In this document: positions 52,431 through 61,006 of the stretch, piece after piece
How the letters are laid out: every line of letters starts with the position of its first letter
Position numbering within the stretch: the stretch's first letter is position 1
DNA from: an uncultured Bacteroidales bacterium
GTDB lineage: Bacteria; Bacteroidota; Bacteroidia; Bacteroidales; UBA932
DNA length: 64,000 bases
Reading direction: 5' to 3'
Assembly: GCA_963931625.1 (NCBI GenBank)
Contig: OZ007033.1
Location: forward strand, 524,881-588,880
Notes under the pieces: generated by a model
Databases searched by the model: none
What the model was told of the DNA's origin: nothing
The model's input: only the letters and a program-made list of their open reading frames with translations
Position numbers and translations under genes: made by a program

Positions 52431-52472
52431 GCAGCGGAAGACAAAAGTCTGAGGACTTTTATCTCCCGCTGC
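52431..52472 (-). terminator. Long hairpin terminator between the convergent RpnS-like ORF and the nuclease locus
   Basis: GCAGCGGAAGACAAAAGTC-TGAG-GACTTTTATCTCCCGCTGC (19-bp stem, 17 Watson-Crick pairs); CGTTTTT follows on the minus strand. Confidence 0.75.
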
Positions 52473-52596: not shown

Positions 52597-53730
52597 CTAT
52601 TCGTTATATTCAATATCCGTTATATTATTAACTGTAACTTGAATTTTTCCCTGATACAGAGTCAAGATACCGGTAACATTTATCGACTTCTCACCCGCAA
52701 GCACAGCAGGATCAATTTCTGTGTCAGCAAAACGGCAATAACCACTGGTACGGATCTGCACGCAAATGCCTTGGCCGCCCTGCTCAGTAGAAAAATATTG
52801 ACTCACTGAAGCCGGGGCTCTCTCTATGCCATAGTAAGACTGGCCATTAACAGGATTTATCTTGTTTTTATAGTCACCTACTGTACCATAATTATAGTCA
52901 TTGGCATTGCCGATGTTTACATTGTCCCAGATTCCAGATACCAGATACTCATCCATTTTTTCTTCAGACATGGCCCATGTTGTAATTCCGGTATTTTCAC
53001 CTGAAATAAAGATACGGTTCCTGGACGCCTTCTTATCCTGATTGGAATCAAGGTACAACAAGGCGAAAGCCTCATTCAAATCTTTATATTTGTCATCATA
53101 CCAACTATACCAAAGGTTCTTGATAGTAACGAGCTTGCCGAGATATGGACAACTGTCTTCCCCCTGAATATCGCTTGAAACCGGCAGCTCATCTGCCTCC
53201 ACGACCTCAGGCTCCACTTCACCTTCAACCTCACCCTTGAACACATGTGTATCAATCAGCAAGGAAGACTCAAGATATGATGTCTCATATGATCCCGACG
53301 GATCGTGAAAACCTATTTGCACCATACCGTTGCCGGAACCTGACTTGTAACCATACATTCCGAGCTCAAGATCACGACAACTTACATATATGCGCTGTCC
53401 GGGAAGATAGTCATTATACAGACCGTTCTTTCCAAGCTTTATTTCCATTCCTCCAGTATCGTCCTGGATATAAAAACTCTTATAGAAATTCCCGTAACGG
53501 TCAGTGGTGCTCACTATTCCGGAAATCACTATATTCTGGTCTATAGTCCATGGATTACCTATCTCATACATCGCAGCAAGCTCACCTATGGTATGAGTGG
53601 GTGCCATAGTGACAGGAATGTCCACTTCCGGCTCATCATAACCTCCCCATACCGGCTGAAACTCCTCCTTGAGCGACTGACAGGAGTTCAATGTCAGAAA
53701 TGACAAAGCAAATATCAATATCTTTTTCAT
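52597..53730 (-). CDS. DUF5689-like OB-fold surface lipoprotein
   Basis: Lipobox LNSC; ISGIVSTTDRYGNFYKSFYIQDDTGGMEI, CVQIRTSGYCRFAD, NVTGILTLY...Q pattern. Confidence 0.75.
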   Translation of the reverse strand: MKKILIFALSFLTLNSCQSLKEEFQPVWGGYDEPEVDIPVTMAPTHTIGELAAMYEIGNPWTIDQNIVISGIVSTTDRYGNFYKSFYIQDDTGGMEIKLGKNGLYNDYLPGQRIYVSCRDLELGMYGYKSGSGNGMVQIGFHDPSGSYETSYLESSLLIDTHVFKGEVEGEVEPEVVEADELPVSSDIQGEDSCPYLGKLVTIKNLWYSWYDDKYKDLNEAFALLYLDSNQDKKASRNRIFISGENTGITTWAMSEEKMDEYLVSGIWDNVNIGNANDYNYGTVGDYKNKINPVNGQSYYGIERAPASVSQYFSTEQGGQGICVQIRTSGYCRFADTEIDPAVLAGEKSINVTGILTLYQGKIQVTVNNITDIEYNE

Positions 53731-53734
53731 GTCC

Positions 53735-56683
53735 TTAGAATCTGAAATAGATGTTCAACATATAGTTTGCCCCGCACATATAAAAATATTTGGGATCAAA
53801 TCGGTAATATCGGTCCTTCCCATAACTGCTGATGAGCCTTGTCTGTTCATAGCCACCGGTTTTGACATTCTTGTTATTCAAGATATTCTGTACATTAAGA
53901 GAGAACCCTATGTTATATTTCCGTCCGATGTACCAGCTTTTGCCTATACTCAGGTTCAACAGGAATGCCGGATCAAATTTCTCTTGTGCGGCCATATAAT
54001 TGACCTCCTCCGGAGTTACTATGCCGTCACCACCTCCACAGGCAAACTCTGTGCGGTAAAGAGGATTCATATCAAGATATGAATTTGCGAAATACTGGCC
54101 GGTAACTTCAAAGAACCAGTAGTTTATGTTGTAGTTGAGACCGACGGCTGCTGCAAGTTGAGGAGTTGAAGGCACATAATGTTTCTTCTCCCCTTCTACT
54201 ATGTAGTTGCCTTCAGCATCCTGATCATATACTGGAGCCCCATCAATATAGCCGGCAATCTTGTATATAGGCTGACTCTTCCAGTACGGCACATCTTCGT
54301 CACGGATAATTTCAGCGCTGTTATCAACCGTCTGTACCATGTGAGGGTTGCTGGTATAGACATACTCACCCCAGCTTAAAACTCCGCTGATACTTAATCC
54401 TTCAACAAACAGAGGCACCCGTACACCAAGTTCAATACCCATATGCCGCTGGTCTATACCAGTCATCGCAAAATTGGTGAAGGAGTGCTGAGAATCATCA
54501 TAGAAGCTCATCACATCGGTCTGATCATTGATTTTGGTATAGAAACCGGTTACCCGCAGATTATACCCATTGTTGCTATACTGATAACTGATGTCCGATG
54601 AGAATGTCTTGACTGTAGTCAGGTCATCCACCAAAGTATTACGTGTACGCGCAGAGACGAAAGACTGTGAAAATGTCGGAGCATCGTTGAAATATCCGAC
54701 ATTGGCGGAGAGCCTATGACCTCCATTCAATTCATATGCAAGGCTTAACTTGGTTGACCATGTCAAGAACGAAGCCACTTCCGACTTGCCCTTTGATGTA
54801 ACCGGATTGCCGTTCTTGTCATATGTTGTCAAAATGCGCCCGGCATATTCCATCGGCTGACCATTGTCGTCAAGACCGGCAAAAAGCCCTTTACGCATAA
54901 GACCGTCTCTCCAGAATGCGTCATACCCGACACTGGCTGCAAGGCTTGCCGTAAATCCGCCAAGATTATAAGTCCCGTTGGCCCAGACATTGGCGCGACG
55001 GATCTGCGCAAGATAATCATAGCCGTATTTGCCGCCCTGTCCAATACGCTCGGCCTCCCCATGCGCAAGGAAATAATCAAGATCATTCTGTATGAGTGCG
55101 GCATTGGATGCAAAATCACGCTCTGCAAAAGAGTCGATATTCAGATAATACTTACCACCGAGAAGGTCGTTCATAAGCTTGTAGTTCTCAGTTCTGTTAT
55201 ACTTGAACTGCGCACCGGCCTTAAGATTGAAATGATCATCAATATTCCAGTCGATATTGCCGGCAAGATTCACATCGTTCTGATCAACACGTCTCTCCTC
55301 AAGCGCATATTTACTGCGTCCGTCAGGATTGGCATAGTTGACATTGTACAATCTGTCCCAATTCAGATGCTGGTAGTTTGCATATTCCGCGGTATGATGG
55401 GTCCATGCATACTCAGCCCATGCAGCCTTCTCAAAATTCTCTCTGTTGTAATCTTCATCCTCCATGAAAAAATATGAAGGAAGATTCTTATAATAATCAG
55501 GTCGCGGATCCATGGCATCGTACCAATCAAGTGCCGTATAGCCATTGTAACCGGTACGGTACAGCAGAGTCGCCGATGCACTGAAATCCTCGCTCGGAGT
55601 ATAGTCATACTTCAATGTAATCACAGGTTCGAATGTCTTGCGTACCCTGGAATTACGGACTTTACCGTTCTGATAGCCCCAGTTGGAGTTATACATGTTG
55701 TCTCCCATGAGATCATACACCTCCTGAGTTGAAGCATTCTGTGCTCCACGGTTGCCTGGAGCGGCAAATGCAGTAAGCGACAATCTGTGAACATCTCCAA
55801 AACGTTTGCTCACACCTGCATAAAATGCAAAAGAACGGTAATAAACCCCCTCTACCCAATCGTTGCCACCAAGACGAGCAGAAACATTAAAGGCATATGA
55901 CCAGCCGTTATCTAGCTCTCCGGAAGCATAAGTGGCCATAAGCCGCAGACGATAGAGGGCTGAATTGGAGAGAAGCGAAAAACGCCATCCCGGACGCACA
56001 TCATATGGCTGACCGGATATATTTGTCAATCCGTTGTAGCCGCCGAGCCCATATGGCAATGTCTCCATTCCAAGTGTAGCGTCCTTTGACCGCATCGCCT
56101 CATTGAGACCGCTCCAAAGAGAGAATGGAGTATAACCGGTCAACGCATCGTTCATCGGCACACCGGAAAGGTACACATCCTGGGTTTCAGAAGCATATCC
56201 CCTATTTTTAAAACGTATGGCACTGAAACCGAAGCCAACCATATCTGCGTAGACATCATTATTTGCATAAAGAATGGTCGGAGCATCAGAATACCCGGTA
56301 TCGTCAAGATCAAATTCCGAGAAACTCGAAGCATCAAGTTCACTGCTTTTCATTGTCTGTGCAGGACCGAGGGTCACGAACATCAAATCCCGCACAAGTC
56401 CCTGTTCCACTTTCACATTCACACGAGCAGCCGTATAGCCTTCCGCACCGACAGACAGGGTATAATTGCCATCAACCAGTCCGTCAAACAGAAACTTTCC
56501 ATCATGATCAGTAGTCAGGGTGGTTAAAACCTGTCCATCATGTTCCAGTTCAACCGTGGCGCCGGAGATAGGAACTCTTCCGGCACGGTCCACCACTGCA
56601 GCCTCAATTCCTCCGGTAGGAGCCTGTGCTGCTGCAACAAATGACAGCAGTACCGCCATCATTGTCAGTATAGCCTTTTTCAT
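53735..56683 (-). CDS. TonB-dependent receptor with N-terminal carboxypeptidase-regulatory-like domain (non-SusC)
   Basis: Signal peptide, NTE, plug (RFKNRGY...YLSGVPMND), aromatic beta-barrel, terminal YMLNIYFRF. Confidence 0.88.
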   Translation of the reverse strand: MKKAILTMMAVLLSFVAAAQAPTGGIEAAVVDRAGRVPISGATVELEHDGQVLTTLTTDHDGKFLFDGLVDGNYTLSVGAEGYTAARVNVKVEQGLVRDLMFVTLGPAQTMKSSELDASSFSEFDLDDTGYSDAPTILYANNDVYADMVGFGFSAIRFKNRGYASETQDVYLSGVPMNDALTGYTPFSLWSGLNEAMRSKDATLGMETLPYGLGGYNGLTNISGQPYDVRPGWRFSLLSNSALYRLRLMATYASGELDNGWSYAFNVSARLGGNDWVEGVYYRSFAFYAGVSKRFGDVHRLSLTAFAAPGNRGAQNASTQEVYDLMGDNMYNSNWGYQNGKVRNSRVRKTFEPVITLKYDYTPSEDFSASATLLYRTGYNGYTALDWYDAMDPRPDYYKNLPSYFFMEDEDYNRENFEKAAWAEYAWTHHTAEYANYQHLNWDRLYNVNYANPDGRSKYALEERRVDQNDVNLAGNIDWNIDDHFNLKAGAQFKYNRTENYKLMNDLLGGKYYLNIDSFAERDFASNAALIQNDLDYFLAHGEAERIGQGGKYGYDYLAQIRRANVWANGTYNLGGFTASLAASVGYDAFWRDGLMRKGLFAGLDDNGQPMEYAGRILTTYDKNGNPVTSKGKSEVASFLTWSTKLSLAYELNGGHRLSANVGYFNDAPTFSQSFVSARTRNTLVDDLTTVKTFSSDISYQYSNNGYNLRVTGFYTKINDQTDVMSFYDDSQHSFTNFAMTGIDQRHMGIELGVRVPLFVEGLSISGVLSWGEYVYTSNPHMVQTVDNSAEIIRDEDVPYWKSQPIYKIAGYIDGAPVYDQDAEGNYIVEGEKKHYVPSTPQLAAAVGLNYNINYWFFEVTGQYFANSYLDMNPLYRTEFACGGGDGIVTPEEVNYMAAQEKFDPAFLLNLSIGKSWYIGRKYNIGFSLNVQNILNNKNVKTGGYEQTRLISSYGKDRYYRFDPKYFYMCGANYMLNIYFRF

Positions 56684-56684
56684 G

Positions 56685-57746
56685 TTATTTTCCGATTACT
56701 ATATATGTTGGATAATGATCTGAATATCCCCCGATAAATGCCCCGTTGGAAAAGGTACGGAATGGAGTACCCTTGTACTGTCCGCTCTGCTGGGTCATGA
56801 AAGATTTTTTGAATACTCTTCCATAATAGCCTTTCTTATGAATCGGACGTATCTTGAGTCCTCCGTCCGGAGCCTGAGCGAGATTATAGTCCACAAGAAT
56901 GTTATCGTATATGTTCCATACTCCACGATATGCAAGGGAACCATAACCGTCAGCCAGCATATCGATAAACGGTGAATAAAAATCTTCCGGCCCCATTTCA
57001 TCGATTTCGGCTTTGCTATGCATCCATACCACCATACTTTCATCAGTCGGGTTATCATTCATATCCCCCATAACGACAACCTTGATATCCGGATACTCCT
57101 GTTTGAGCTGCTGAACATGATTATAAATGATTTCAGCACCCCGAGGACGCAAATCAGTTCCCTTGCCGCCGATCCGTGAAGGCAGATGAGCAACATAAAC
57201 TGCAATGTCCTCACCATTGATTTGCCCGTGCACCATAAGTATGTCACGGGTTTTGAAGGCTTTCTGTTCCTCTTCATTGAGGGTAAACTCGACTCCGCTG
57301 TCCTCAAAGGTAAATGGGATTGACTCACTGTCAATATAATTGAATTGATCGGGTCTGTAGAGCAAGGCGACATCTACACCTCTTGCATCCGGGCCGTCAT
57401 AATGGACTATCTGGTAATTTGCGGCCACCAGCTCAGGCAGGCTAACAAGATCCTCCAGCACAAGCCTGTTTTCTATCTCACTCACACCAAGAATCGTGTG
57501 ATAGACACCGTTTTCATCACGCATCGCATTGATTACACGAGCGATGTTGTGCAATTTCTTTTCATACTTGGTCTGAGTCCACTTGTTCTTTCCATCCGGA
57601 AGGAACTCCGCGTCATCTTTGACGGGGTCATCATAGATGTCAAAAAGATTCTCGACATTGTAGAACCCGATGACATAGTTCTGCTTCTGGGCAAAAGACT
57701 GTATGCCCGTAAGCAAAAGAATTATCAGCAGAAATATCTTCTTCAT
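56685..57746 (-). CDS. Secreted endonuclease/exonuclease/phosphatase (EEP) family protein
   Basis: Signal peptide; FYNVENLFD, GVSEIEN, DARGVDVAL, AHLPSR, MGDMND, GGYSDHYP. Confidence 0.9.
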   Translation of the reverse strand: MKKIFLLIILLLTGIQSFAQKQNYVIGFYNVENLFDIYDDPVKDDAEFLPDGKNKWTQTKYEKKLHNIARVINAMRDENGVYHTILGVSEIENRLVLEDLVSLPELVAANYQIVHYDGPDARGVDVALLYRPDQFNYIDSESIPFTFEDSGVEFTLNEEEQKAFKTRDILMVHGQINGEDIAVYVAHLPSRIGGKGTDLRPRGAEIIYNHVQQLKQEYPDIKVVVMGDMNDNPTDESMVVWMHSKAEIDEMGPEDFYSPFIDMLADGYGSLAYRGVWNIYDNILVDYNLAQAPDGGLKIRPIHKKGYYGRVFKKSFMTQQSGQYKGTPFRTFSNGAFIGGYSDHYPTYIVIGK

Positions 57747-57760
57747 AAAAAGCTAAATTG

Positions 57761-58933
57761 TCAGTCCCACCAGGAGTCTACTTCCGATTCGACCCTTGCG
57801 GCCACATCCTCGCCCACCTTGTCCGGAAGATTGACAAAGAAATCGTAGCCGAGCCTGCGTTCGAGGTCATCGATGGTCATTGACTGGTTCATTATGGTAT
57901 TCTTGTCGCTGCCGTAGCTTCGGTGGCCGAAGTAGAAAGCGATTCCGATATAGCCTCCGGTAGCATTGCCTATCGAACCGCCTTTCTTGTAGCCGAGCAA
58001 AGCCTTGAAATAGCCCTCGGGGACAGTGCACGCCGCCCCGTTGTTGTCATAGGCGACATCGGAAGCCCCCTGTATGTCAGCTCCTGTGACGACATAAAGA
58101 GTATCCATCTGATAGCACCAATCGCGTACCATATTTTCCAGATTGGCCCAGGCAGACTGATTGAGAGCCGCCTTCTGTGGCGTCATGTTGGTAAAATAAA
58201 AGGTAGTTTCGTTGATTCCGTTGCCATACCTGTCAGCCGATGGAAGCTGATGCCCGCGGTCATATCCGCCACGGTATCCGCTGAACAGCACCGGCTGATA
58301 CCTTGACGGAATCTTGGGATCGTAACCCCAGTCATCCGTGCGGCTTCCGCTGCCGATCAGCCCTCTGTTCAAAGGATATGCGACCCACACGGCAAGCCTG
58401 TCATCAAGACTGTAATAATAGGAATAATTGCGCAAGGTCTTGCCGGAGCGCACCATGTCATGGGTAATGAAATAGAGGTCTGTATCGTCTGTAGCAGGAA
58501 GTTCCAGCCATTTGCCCGGGATGTCGGCCTTTATCTCAGACGGGCCTCCGCCAGTGCCGGCAGTCCCGTTCTGGGTGAAGGTTGCCGAGGCGGACATTTC
58601 TCCGGCAACGACCGTCAGGATACAACTGCGGGCATCCTTTCCCTCATTCTTTTCCCACGAAAGCACAATGTCGGACCTGCGGTCCTCTCCTGCCGCAGGC
58701 TCGACACTTGCCCATTCCTCCGCTTCCCCGAAATCGATGGTTATCGTCCAGGGACCGGCAGCATCCACCGTCACAAACTGACTGGAAGCCCCTGTTCCGG
58801 CAGTTTTGAGCGGCACGGAAATGGACGGCTCCCGGTCAATTGCGGTCTCTTCAGACTTGACGCAGGAAGAGACCGCAAAAAGAATGACTGCCGAAAGCGG
58901 CAAAAATATTTTTGAAAAATTATTCAGCAGCAA
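57761..58933 (-). CDS. DNA/RNA non-specific endonuclease (NucA/EndA His-Me finger) lipoprotein with BACON domain
   Basis: Lipobox VSSC; BACON unit; WVAYPL, YDRGHQLPSAD, NETTFYFTNMTPQ, WANLE..VR, VPEGYFKALL. Confidence 0.92.
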   Translation of the reverse strand: MLLNNFSKIFLPLSAVILFAVSSCVKSEETAIDREPSISVPLKTAGTGASSQFVTVDAAGPWTITIDFGEAEEWASVEPAAGEDRRSDIVLSWEKNEGKDARSCILTVVAGEMSASATFTQNGTAGTGGGPSEIKADIPGKWLELPATDDTDLYFITHDMVRSGKTLRNYSYYYSLDDRLAVWVAYPLNRGLIGSGSRTDDWGYDPKIPSRYQPVLFSGYRGGYDRGHQLPSADRYGNGINETTFYFTNMTPQKAALNQSAWANLENMVRDWCYQMDTLYVVTGADIQGASDVAYDNNGAACTVPEGYFKALLGYKKGGSIGNATGGYIGIAFYFGHRSYGSDKNTIMNQSMTIDDLERRLGYDFFVNLPDKVGEDVAARVESEVDSWWD

Positions 58934-60929
58934 TGTATGTTACTTTTGAAATCTGGACAAATCCATTGCTTGAGTGTGATTGGCAATCGAAAGTCAGCTT
59001 GTAATACTGATCAGCCGCCTGATTTATCTCAGGAATCTCAAATTTCAGAGTCCCCGCAGCAAGTCCACCACTTGGCACGATATCATCTACTACTAAAGTA
59101 CTCAAATTCGCATCAGAATAGATGCTGAGTTTTATTGAATTAACCTTAGAAGCAAGCAGATTATCTGCGACCACCTCAACAGATGTTAATTTAGGCATTG
59201 GAGTATCAGTACTGATTGTAGCTACAGAAGCATTATTTTTTCTGCCACATCTGATATATGTCCAATTGTCCCAATTATTATTATTAAAAGCATAAATAGA
59301 CCATTCGCTATCACCGATCTTGGCCGTCCACTCAGTTAGATACTGATTGGATTTCAAGCCATTATTCGATGAATTGTCATCTGGGAATGTCAAGGTCACT
59401 GTACCTTCCGGAGTGGGTGTAGGAGGAACAACTTCTTCTGCTTCATCCTTCACGACCACATTCTTCACTTCCCATGTACCTGCCTTTGAAGAAGAACTCT
59501 TGTAGACAAATGCAAACTGCATTTTCTTGCCTGCATAAGCAGAGATATCTATGTCTCCGGCATCCACAAATGTCCATCCCTGGCTTGAAGGATAAGTGAC
59601 TCCCGTAACTTTAGTCCAATCACCTGCGCCTTCTTCTTTAGCATATACAGATGCATCATCGCCAAGTGTCGATGTATTGAAGAAATTTGTGGCATGTTCA
59701 AATGTAAGATATGCAGATGTTTTACCGGAAAGATCAATTACCGGAGAAATGAGCCAGCTTTCGCTCTCATAATTTTTACCATCCACATATGCACTGGCCT
59801 TCATGCACTGATAAGAGGCATCATGGTTCCACACCCAGGTCAACGGATCATTCATCACCTTGTTGTCAATCGTAAAATCACCGATTCCCTTGTTGAAGGA
59901 ATTGGAATAAATCCAATCACCAGGGACCGGATCCGGATCTTCACCAGGCTCTTCACCGCCACCCTGACCCTGCTCATGAGATTCTATAGTACAGTCCACC
60001 ACCTCGTCCTTGCCGTTATATTCGGTATAAGCACCGCGGATGGTAACCTTGTCACCTGACTTGAGTTTCTGACCATATTCGGAAGCATTATTTACGGTAT
60101 AGACATATACAGTCCCTGTCTCATCCTCAAGGTCAAAACTTGCAAAATTTGCATTGATGCTGCCGGTTACGGTACCGGTCATTCTATACATGGTGAACAT
60201 ATCCTTGGCCTCAAGGAACTGCTGCACCGTCACAGTCTGGATAGACTCAAGATCAAGCGGTTCATGAGATTCAACGGTACCATCTGAAAGCTGATGCTCA
60301 GACTTGCTGGAATAGAATTCATATACACCCTTAATACTTACTTTGTCTCCGGTATGGATATCCATCGCCTTAAATTCTTCAGCATCTGCTCCGATGAACG
60401 GACACGAAATTGTACCGGTCTCATCTTTAAGGGAGAACCCCCAATATTTTTCACTAGTTGCAATATCACCGACAACTCCTGTGAGCATGTATTCATTTTC
60501 CGTATCAGCCTTCTCGATGAATTCGGCGATGGTCATACCTGCATATTCACCCTCAGGCCCTTTCTGGGTGACTGTCAGCTCAGCCTTATGCATGATATTT
60601 CCATAGAAGACGAGATCTGCCTTGCGGTCAGCCCTGTCATTGGCCATAGCCTTGATGGTTATAGTCTGAGGAGAAGCGGAGGCTTTGCCGCTTGAAGGAT
60701 TGATGCTGAGCCATGTCTGCGCATCCTCATCATAGCCTTGGACAGACCAGTCAATGGTAGCGGTAAGCTCAACAACATATTCCCCCCCCTCTTCAGGGAA
60801 CTCATGGGTCGTCTCTGCCGGATTCAAACTGATTTCCTCCGGTCCGAGCTCCGTAGTTTTCTGGCAGGCGAACACCATTGTCAGTGACGCAGCCGCCAAA
60901 GCGAATAAACTCTTATATTTCATAACCAA
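58920..60929 (-). CDS. Multidomain surface lipoprotein: BACON, two OB folds, jelly-roll (choice-of-anchor J-like) domain, C-terminal beta domain
   Basis: Lipobox VFAC; repeated LTGVV...LKDETGTI...GDKVSIKG / MTGTV...LEDETGTV...GDKVTIRG; WLISPVIDLS...LTFEHA; Pro/Glu/Gly linkers. Confidence 0.78.
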   Translation of the reverse strand: MVMKYKSLFALAAASLTMVFACQKTTELGPEEISLNPAETTHEFPEEGGEYVVELTATIDWSVQGYDEDAQTWLSINPSSGKASASPQTITIKAMANDRADRKADLVFYGNIMHKAELTVTQKGPEGEYAGMTIAEFIEKADTENEYMLTGVVGDIATSEKYWGFSLKDETGTISCPFIGADAEEFKAMDIHTGDKVSIKGVYEFYSSKSEHQLSDGTVESHEPLDLESIQTVTVQQFLEAKDMFTMYRMTGTVTGSINANFASFDLEDETGTVYVYTVNNASEYGQKLKSGDKVTIRGAYTEYNGKDEVVDCTIESHEQGQGGGEEPGEDPDPVPGDWIYSNSFNKGIGDFTIDNKVMNDPLTWVWNHDASYQCMKASAYVDGKNYESESWLISPVIDLSGKTSAYLTFEHATNFFNTSTLGDDASVYAKEEGAGDWTKVTGVTYPSSQGWTFVDAGDIDISAYAGKKMQFAFVYKSSSSKAGTWEVKNVVVKDEAEEVVPPTPTPEGTVTLTFPDDNSSNNGLKSNQYLTEWTAKIGDSEWSIYAFNNNNWDNWTYIRCGRKNNASVATISTDTPMPKLTSVEVVADNLLASKVNSIKLSIYSDANLSTLVVDDIVPSGGLAAGTLKFEIPEINQAADQYYKLTFDCQSHSSNGFVQISKVTYIAAE

Positions 60930-60957: not shown

Positions 60958-61006
60958 CAAAGATAAACAAATAACCGATATTTCATAGTATAAAAAATAT
61001 GAAATA
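60958..61006 (-). promoter_or_regulatory. -7 box (TATCTTTG) and 9-10-9 inverted repeat upstream of the nuclease locus
   Basis: CAAAGATA at 60958-65; TATTTCATA (60979-87) / TATGAAATA (60998-61006). Confidence 0.55.

Follow-up and report, generated by a model that had tools for sequence, protein, structure and literature searches.

A probable ddb-type DNA-utilization locus in a single-strand operon of chicken-gut Candidatus Cryptobacteroides

The stretch analyzed here (the window) comprises 64,000 nucleotides (nt) of contig OZ007033.1 from an uncultured Bacteroidales bacterium. Its minus strand carries, at 52597-60929, five co-directional open reading frames (ORFs) of 669, 390, 353, 982 and 377 amino acids (aa), given in operon order from 5' to 3'. 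Pfam and NCBIfam matches above the model cut-offs confirm the identities that the original prediction gave to the products: a lipoprotein with a BACON and two OB domains, a BACON-NucA nuclease, an EEP enzyme, a TonB-dependent receptor (TBDR) not of the SusC type and a DUF5689 lipoprotein. The genes are packed as tightly as had been described, with overlaps or gaps of 14 nt or less. The first lipoprotein gene overlaps the NucA gene by 14 nt (58933 versus 58920), and gaps of 14 nt, 1 nt and 4 nt separate the NucA, EEP, TBDR and DUF5689 genes in turn. None of the five proteins matches a SusC/RagA or SusD-family model in Pfam or NCBIfam, in agreement with the earlier description of the locus as SusD-less.

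The system to which this operon is compared is the DNA-utilization locus ddbABCDEF, described in Bacteroides thetaiotaomicron (Sharan et al., PNAS 2025, PMC12478041). In that locus DdbA and DdbF are nucleases with signal-peptidase-II (SPII) leaders, DdbB is a nuclease with a signal-peptidase-I (SPI) leader, DdbC is a TonB-dependent transporter and DdbE, another SPII protein, has no assigned function. DdbD is a DUF5689 protein whose fold resembles that of p202 and for which an interface with DdbC is predicted (PMC12478041). DdbA, DdbB and DdbF act as DNases in vitro, and deletion of ddbABCDEF abolishes both DNA depletion and the production of uracil and xanthine, in culture and in gnotobiotic mice (PMC12478041).

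Two of the five genes encode predicted nucleases. The 390-aa product of the second gene (57761..58933, minus strand) is a predicted DdbA-like surface nuclease that scores 129 bits on Endonuclease_NS alongside a weak BACON match. Its leader is a lipoprotein signal (...AVSSC), and the lipobox occurs in all orthologues. Alignment to NucA of Anabaena (1zm8/2o3b) and to the Serratia nuclease (1smn) bears out the earlier observation of an intact DRGH motif: D225-R-G-H228, the Mg-ligand N258 and E266 are all in place. The protein is 32% identical to BT3558, 33% to BT3563 and 35% to its B. pyogenes orthologue. The third gene (56685..57746, minus strand) encodes a predicted DdbB-like EEP nuclease of 353 aa, which scores 311 bits on Exo_endo_phos_3 and is 39% identical to BT3559 and 46% to its B. 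pyogenes counterpart. Its catalytic set (N30, E32, D120, H187, D228, N230, D343 and H344) is invariant in 12 homologues across the class. Because its leader, MKKIFLLIILLLTGIQSFA/QK (...SFA/QK), is of the SPI type and has no Cys, the EEP enzyme is predicted to reside in the periplasm, as does DdbB, and only one nuclease of the operon would therefore be exposed at the surface. The claim of two secreted nucleases thus stands for the NucA lipoprotein, predicted at the surface, and has to be moved to the periplasm for the EEP enzyme. Sequence searches of the EEP enzyme and of the TBDR against solved structures returned nothing useful.

The fourth and fifth genes would provide the import step. A DdbC-like TonB-dependent outer-membrane transporter of 982 aa is encoded at 53735..56683 on the minus strand, with scores of 51 bits on CarboxypepD_reg and 42.5 bits on TonB_dep_Rec_b-barrel. 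It has an SPI leader without a Cys, an N-terminal CarboxypepD_reg domain, a divergent plug and a beta-barrel. Across the orthologues of the operon the leaders fall into the same classes, SPII for the three lipoproteins and SPI for the EEP enzyme and the transporter. The DdbD-like lipoprotein next to it (52597..53730, minus strand; 377 aa) scores 128 bits on DUF5689 (PF18942), has a lipobox (...LNSC followed by QSLKEE) and gives a weak C-terminal OB match besides. It is 26% identical to BT3561 and 31% to the B. pyogenes protein. An AlphaFold2 model built with 39 orthologues is a multi-OB fold with a predicted local distance difference test score (pLDDT) of 86 and a predicted template-modelling score (pTM) of 0.82. 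The best Foldseek matches of this model in the PDB are Pyrococcus abyssi RPA (E 1e-4), the p204 HINab-dsDNA complex, BRCA2-ssDNA and the HIN domains of Ifi202, IFI16 and AIM2; the TM-scores stay low (0.2-0.37), an effect of the multi-domain arrangement. These modelled matches reproduce the observation made for DdbD by Sharan et al. By analogy, the DUF5689 protein is predicted to be the substrate-binding lid and partner of the transporter, in the place of SusD. In the closed 3.30-Mb contig that makes up this genome, no second DUF5689 gene and no second transporter of this type are found.

The first gene encodes an accessory lipoprotein of 667 aa (58920..60923, minus strand), or of 669 aa if read from TTG 60929; it was characterized by Pfam/NCBIfam, homology, AlphaFold2 and Foldseek. 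The true start is most likely ATG 60923, because this start gives MKYKSL..., the N-terminus of all orthologues. After a lipobox (...MVFAC), the order of its parts is BACON, OB, OB, an acidic and proline-rich linker, a choice-of-anchor-J (MAM-like) beta-sandwich, a PPTPTPEG linker and a C-terminal beta-sandwich. In the 669-aa ORF the Pfam/NCBIfam scores, all above the family cut-offs, are 33 bits for BACON, 39 for tRNA_anti_2, 42 for tRNA_anti-codon and 54 for choice_anchor_J. Residues 322-493 align with residues 353-528 of BT3562 (DdbE) at 37% identity over 172-180 aa, and hhalign gives a probability of 92.6% for the match to the choice-of-anchor-J-like region of BT3562. The rest of the protein, that is BACON, the two OB folds and the C-terminal sandwich, is unlike the DUF6359 domains of BT3562. 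From this partial homology the accessory lipoprotein is predicted to fill the role of DdbE, as a DNA binder resembling SusE/F.

In the AlphaFold2 model of the accessory lipoprotein (pLDDT 79) the acidic/proline linker is disordered. Foldseek matches the protein to HIN-dsDNA structures of p202, p205, IFI16 and AIM2 and to Teb1 with a probability of 1.00, and the OB pair also matches 4jbm, the PDB entry used by Sharan et al. Among the other domains, BACON matches 3zmr and the sandwich matches the MAM domains of reelin and meprin. The models thus point to HIN/RPA-type tandem OB folds in both the accessory and the DUF5689 lipoprotein. The original prediction had taken the OB folds as binders of single-stranded nucleic acids; ssDNA binders are indeed among the matches, but folds of the HIN/RPA type bind dsDNA too, so that the restriction to single strands is dropped.

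These modules raise the question of the substrate, and an RNA-utilization variant of ddb, or one that prefers single-stranded nucleic acid, can be envisaged. The Serratia/NucA family cuts both DNA and RNA, as the Pfam name 'DNA/RNA non-specific endonuclease' conveys, and OB models of the tRNA-anticodon type pick up the OB modules, which also match the ssDNA binders RPA, Teb1 and BRCA2 besides HIN. Set against this, the best fold matches include HIN-dsDNA complexes, DNA is the only substrate tried for any ddb locus (PMC12478041), and no sequence feature discriminates between the substrates. A preference for RNA or single strands is considered extremely improbable.

The accessory lipoprotein is modular and can be aligned only in parts across related loci. 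Many metagenomic proteins (P0265, P0276, P0288-P0364; 585-806 aa) share an N-terminal BACON-OB-OB half at 75-95% identity while their C-terminal halves differ. The C-terminal third of the window protein is encoded by AT-rich DNA, with 34% G+C at third codon positions (GC3) compared with 49% in the N-terminal part. On these sequences it looks like a protein that undergoes recombinational domain swapping between strains.

Direct comparison of the window with the ddb locus of B. thetaiotaomicron VPI-5482 (BT3558-BT3563), which has the same Pfam families, bears out the original prediction's reference to a similar locus in that species. The VPI-5482 genes form two divergent units. The genes for the EEP enzyme (BT3559) and the BACON-NucA protein (BT3558) lie on one strand, and those for a transporter of 846 aa, a DUF5689 protein of 286 aa, a protein of 654 aa with two DUF6359 domains and a NucA protein of 293 aa lie on the other; this layout is that of the six-gene description of ddbA-F. 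The transporter of the window is 33% identical to BT3560 (AAO78666.1) over 893 residues in 916 alignment columns (blastp, E 1e-140). The homology and synteny check proposed earlier returned identities of 32, 39, 33 and 26% to BT3558, BT3559, BT3560 and BT3561. Judged by sequence, four proteins of the window and one domain of the fifth are homologous to BT3558-BT3562.

The two loci share a BACON-NucA lipoprotein, an SPI Exo_endo_phos_3 enzyme, a transporter not of the SusC type, an adjacent downstream DUF5689 lipoprotein and a choice-of-anchor-J-like domain. They differ in layout, the window genes all lying on one strand in one operon whereas ddbBA diverges from ddbCDEF in VPI-5482. The accessory lipoprotein of the window stands upstream and has BACON and two OB domains, whereas DdbE has two DUF6359 domains. 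An N-terminal CarboxypepD_reg domain is present in the window transporter and missing from BT3560, and the DUF5689 protein has 377 aa compared with 286 aa. At the edge of the VPI-5482 locus, a gene for a DDE transposase (L086 5978-7336) lies immediately beside BT3558 and may be relevant to the reported substitutions of the whole locus between strains.

A closer counterpart is found in a second type of Bacteroides locus, present in B. pyogenes, B. caecimuris, B. reticulotermitis and B. ihuae; members with 70-77% identity also occur in Alistipes finegoldii/onderdonkii and Phocaeicola. Here a large lipoprotein, a BACON-NucA protein, an EEP enzyme, a TBDR with CarboxypepD_reg and a DUF5689 protein follow each other in the same order as in the window and on one strand. 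This type also gives the highest identities outside the window's own family, with 40-41% over the full length for the TBDR, 46% for the EEP enzyme, 35% for the NucA protein and 31% for the DUF5689 protein. It departs from the window in its accessory lipoprotein, which in B. pyogenes has 887 aa and an internal DUF5689 and is unrelated apart from a weakly BACON-like N-terminus. The suggestion that the window might hold a reduced ddb copy is not upheld by this comparison; the locus is instead colinear with the five-gene B. pyogenes/caecimuris type, whose transporters form its sister clade.

This second type can probably be equated with subtypes described in the literature. The B. pyogenes locus spans 8,763 bp and its NucA protein is 34.9% identical to BT3563. 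For the Bt2 locus a length of 8,758 bp is given (PMC12478041), and an alternative B. thetaiotaomicron type ('jmh43-type') is reported at 34% identity to BT3563 (Béchon et al., PNAS 2022, PMC8851478). Because of these agreements in length and identity, the B. pyogenes/caecimuris type is probably the Bt2 of Sharan et al. and the 'jmh43-type' of Béchon et al.; no member labelled B. thetaiotaomicron was found in the protein search or the cluster look-ups. A further locus in B. faecium (L088; 7538-12842 and 16567-17667) has a TBDR with a clear Plug, next to an 863-aa lipoprotein with a weak OB match and with an EEP gene 4 kb off. It is possibly a ddb locus of a Pv type, and its TBDR is 24% identical to the window transporter.

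The published scheme uses DdbC as the anchor for finding loci and recognizes four subtypes (Bt1, Bt2, Pv1 and Pv2), defined by DdbC identity above 50% and coverage above 75% (PMC12478041). The DdbC reference of Bt1 is WP_008762511.1, and those of Bt2, Pv1 and Pv2 are WP_055220680.1, WP_005843284.1 and WP_117829583.1 (PMC12478041). BT3560 presumably equals or nearly equals WP_008762511.1. With 33% identity to BT3560, whose six-gene layout fits Bt1, the window transporter falls outside the >50% range of that subtype. It would probably constitute an unnamed subtype under the published 50% rule, because its identity is 40-41% to the sister type, which stands in for Bt2, and 24% to the B. faecium TBDR, which stands in for a possible Pv type, and thus below the threshold.

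The closest public locus is that of Candidatus Cryptobacteroides merdavium, a metagenome-assembled genome (MAG) from chicken gut, with a transporter 97% identical to that of the window. A search with the transporter collected 53 related loci, mostly from gut and rumen Bacteroidales MAGs, with E-values that are relative to this candidate set only. The order NucA-EEP-TBDR-DUF5689 is colinear in all of those long enough to show it, and the arrangement is therefore not due to chance. Homologues of the transporter occur in 220 of 401 evenly sampled Bacteroidales species, most at 30-40% identity. Values above 50% are confined in this sample to the window's own genus (57-66%), and the next is a genome of the same family at 46%. 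In a maximum-likelihood tree of 51 transporters, the clade of the window (Cryptobacteroides, Merdivivens and related MAGs) is sister to the B. pyogenes/caecimuris clade, with a long common stem and full support (100) in the Shimodaira-Hasegawa-like approximate likelihood ratio test (SH-aLRT). BT3560 falls in another clade with a relative from B. ovatus, and the homologues from outside Bacteroidales form a clade of their own.

Taken together, the locus is best explained, with a probability of roughly 85%, as a DNA-utilization locus of the ddb type in a Candidatus Cryptobacteroides genome from the chicken gut, combining capture and cutting at the surface with TonB-driven import and periplasmic trimming. 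The accessory and DUF5689 lipoproteins would retain extracellular DNA, and perhaps RNA, on the outside of the cell through their HIN/RPA-like OB folds, and the BACON-NucA lipoprotein, a sugar-non-specific endonuclease of the beta-beta-alpha-metal type, would fragment the captured DNA. The DUF5689 protein would sit on the DdbC-type barrel as SusD does on SusC and pass the fragments in, and the barrel would import them on TonB energy. The periplasmic EEP nuclease would then trim them to nucleotides, which enzymes encoded elsewhere may dephosphorylate, take up and deaminate. For the DdbC-DdbD complex, the substrate and the direction of flow, we infer the scheme from the B. thetaiotaomicron experiments and from the analogy with SusCD.

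The parallel with SusC/SusD loci lies in the combination of surface binders, a surface endo-hydrolase, a TonB importer paired with a lipoprotein, and an exo-acting or trimming enzyme in the periplasm. The window differs from such loci in that neither a SusD-family protein nor a SusC/RagA match is present and the hydrolases are nucleases rather than glycoside hydrolases. The earlier picture of a capture, cut and import machine like those of polysaccharide-utilization loci is thus backed by the ddb homology, while the notion that the imported DNA serves as a nutrient finds only partial support in the literature, since the outputs measured in B. thetaiotaomicron are uracil and xanthine and DNA is a poor sole source of C, N or P for this species (PMC12478041).

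Several points weigh against a ddb assignment. The locus has no DdbF, and only part of the accessory lipoprotein is homologous to DdbE. The identity to DdbC lies below 50% for every reference compared. Taken alone, the window transporter gives no Pfam score for a plug; the Plug model does match its homologues at the corresponding place, in two cases above the cut-off, and the presence of the domain is thus suggested via homologues only. None of the three lipoproteins carries the C(x/xx)(D/E)(D/E) export signal in its strict form, their acidic pairs lying 4-9 residues past the Cys, and because of this their exposure at the cell surface is inferred by analogy only. The DNA-depleting activity may not be simply transferable either, because the ddb subtypes differ strongly in it (PMC12478041). 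Outside the locus, the same genome encodes two NucA-family paralogues and one EEP paralogue (C1:2433952-2434848, C1:2895503-2896288 and C1:1038369-1039280), and such paralogues could substitute for the missing DdbF.

The nucleases of VPI-5482 have also been studied in another context. BT3560-BT3563 form an operon that includes the DNase BT3563, which promotes bile-dependent biofilm, and deletion of BT3560-3563 causes a stronger defect than deletion of BT3563 alone (PMC8851478). The main role of the window locus might accordingly be the remodelling or removal of extracellular DNA, such as that of a biofilm matrix or of host DNA traps, with the transporter as a minor scavenger; the poor value of DNA as a sole C, N or P source would fit such a role. 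However, the colinearity of nuclease, transporter and binder in the 53 loci and class-wide argues that import is the conserved function, and after deletion of ddb nucleobases are no longer produced from DNA but are still formed from nucleosides (PMC12478041). The window, moreover, has no separate orthologue of DdbF/BT3563. Remodelling as the main role is very unlikely on this balance, and DNA utilization is retained as the preferred explanation.

Homologues outside Bacteroidales bring in a different function. The EEP and TBDR-DUF5689 core is found class-wide, and sampled genomes from outside Bacteroidales have TBDRs 29-33% identical to that of the window. In these genomes the core consists of a divergent EEP gene, the transporter and a DUF5689 lipoprotein of 400-480 aa, and NucA is missing. 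A related core is known from Riemerella anatipestifer, where natural transformation depends on the TBDR RA0C_RS04915 and the lipoprotein RS04920, both of them essential for it (Huang et al., Front Microbiol 2021, PMC8459023); their homology to ddb is stated in the ddb paper (PMC12478041). The likeness to the window consists of a CarboxypepD_reg TBDR, a DUF5689 lipoprotein encoded after it and an EEP gene nearby. In Riemerella-like loci, however, DUF5689 and choice-of-anchor-J are joined in one lipoprotein of 400-480 aa, the EEP gene is divergent and no NucA surface nuclease is present, and the function demonstrated in Riemerella is transformation, not catabolism. The joined form corresponds to lipo_M949_1556, which in the window is split over two proteins: this model, with a cut-off of 475, scores the DUF5689 protein at 46 bits (profile 29-202) and the 669-aa protein at 32 bits (profile 335-456), both far too low to count as a match.

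The operon could then encode an outer-membrane gate for natural transformation, as in Riemerella, which would admit long DNA and pass it to ComEC and DprA. Like RS04915, and in contrast to BT3560, the window TBDR keeps CarboxypepD_reg; both domains of RS04920 are present over the two lipoproteins; the core shared with Riemerella extends across the class; and the genome has a ComEC-like protein and DprA. The last point is not discriminating, as 10-11 of 14 control genomes, some of them non-competent, also gave matches to ComEC and DprA. A surface-anchored, non-specific endonuclease near the head of the operon and a periplasmic nuclease favour degradation, and the tree places the window with the nuclease-rich Bacteroides type and not with the clade from outside Bacteroidales. 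In view of the two nuclease genes of the operon and of the position in the tree, transformation is rated unlikely, with only a slim chance of being the function. A ComEC pseudogene, considered as an argument against transformation, was rejected, the TAG in question being the natural stop of a 387-aa Competence-domain protein.

With the locus read as ddb-type, its mechanism, its SusD-less architecture and its OB/HIN-like binder are already published, and it opens no new question. What is specific to it is a transporter with less than 50% identity to the references compared, a single-strand five-gene operon without DdbF and a recombined BACON/OB/choice-of-anchor-J lipoprotein. There is a small though real chance that it departs further from the known systems, either as a functionally distinct fifth subtype in which swapped OB-lipoprotein modules choose between dsDNA, ssDNA, RNA or the source of the DNA, or through a DdbC/DdbD gate that passes long DNA for gene uptake. 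The assignment extends an experimentally defined system to Candidatus Cryptobacteroides, an uncultured-type lineage of the poultry gut that belongs to a family distinct from Bacteroidaceae. The published 50%-identity scheme (Bt1, Bt2, Pv1, Pv2) leaves part of the diversity uncovered. Names are also gained for five genes that annotation pipelines label 'hypothetical', 'TonB-dependent receptor' or 'DUF5689'.

The five genes are predicted to be a single tight operon bounded by a -7-like box and a terminator. The putative Bacteroidetes-type -7 promoter box, TATCTTTG, lies at 60958..60965 on the minus strand, 34 nt 5' of the first ATG; it is a match to the consensus only, and inspection of the sequence found no clear copy of the -33 TTTG at this box. 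A scan for sigma-70 promoters gave 22 sites against 17.8 expected and is uninformative for Bacteroidota. Just upstream of the -7-like box is a perfect inverted repeat, ATTTCATA ... TATGAAAT (60980-61004, minus strand), a possible operator. At the other end, a terminator scan predicts an intrinsic terminator at 52431..52472 on the minus strand, with a 19-bp stem and a 4-nt loop followed by CGTTTTTCAT; it sits 125 nt past the stop codon of the DUF5689 gene.

The flanking genes are unrelated to the locus. On the upstream side a gene for a Dcp-type M3 peptidase ends in a terminator hairpin (61256-61227), after which the -7-like box follows. On the other side lie genes for an Rpn nuclease and an RpnS-like protein, mannose-6-phosphate isomerase, a ROK kinase and a MatE pump. 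Neither a regulator nor a gene of nucleoside catabolism was found among the neighbouring genes. In most relatives (L004, L005, L007-L016 and others) an M3 peptidase gene, whose product is 45-57% identical to the Dcp of the window, lies about 1.1 kb downstream of the DUF5689 gene on the same strand. The window and its closest relatives (L001, L003, L031) have the Dcp orthologue (83-97%) upstream instead, and in the window Rpn/RpnS follow the operon. The flank of the operon is thus rearranged between the window group and the other relatives.

The G+C content of the locus is 46.3%, compared with a genome mean of 50.3%, and corresponds to the 12.6th percentile of genome windows. Horizontal acquisition was considered on the basis of this composition and rejected as weak, since the value is no more extreme than that percentile. 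Within the operon the NucA gene (57761-58933) is an outlier, with a G+C of 54% and a GC3 of 62% compared with a GC3 of 43-49% in the other genes, which suggests that the operon is of mosaic origin.

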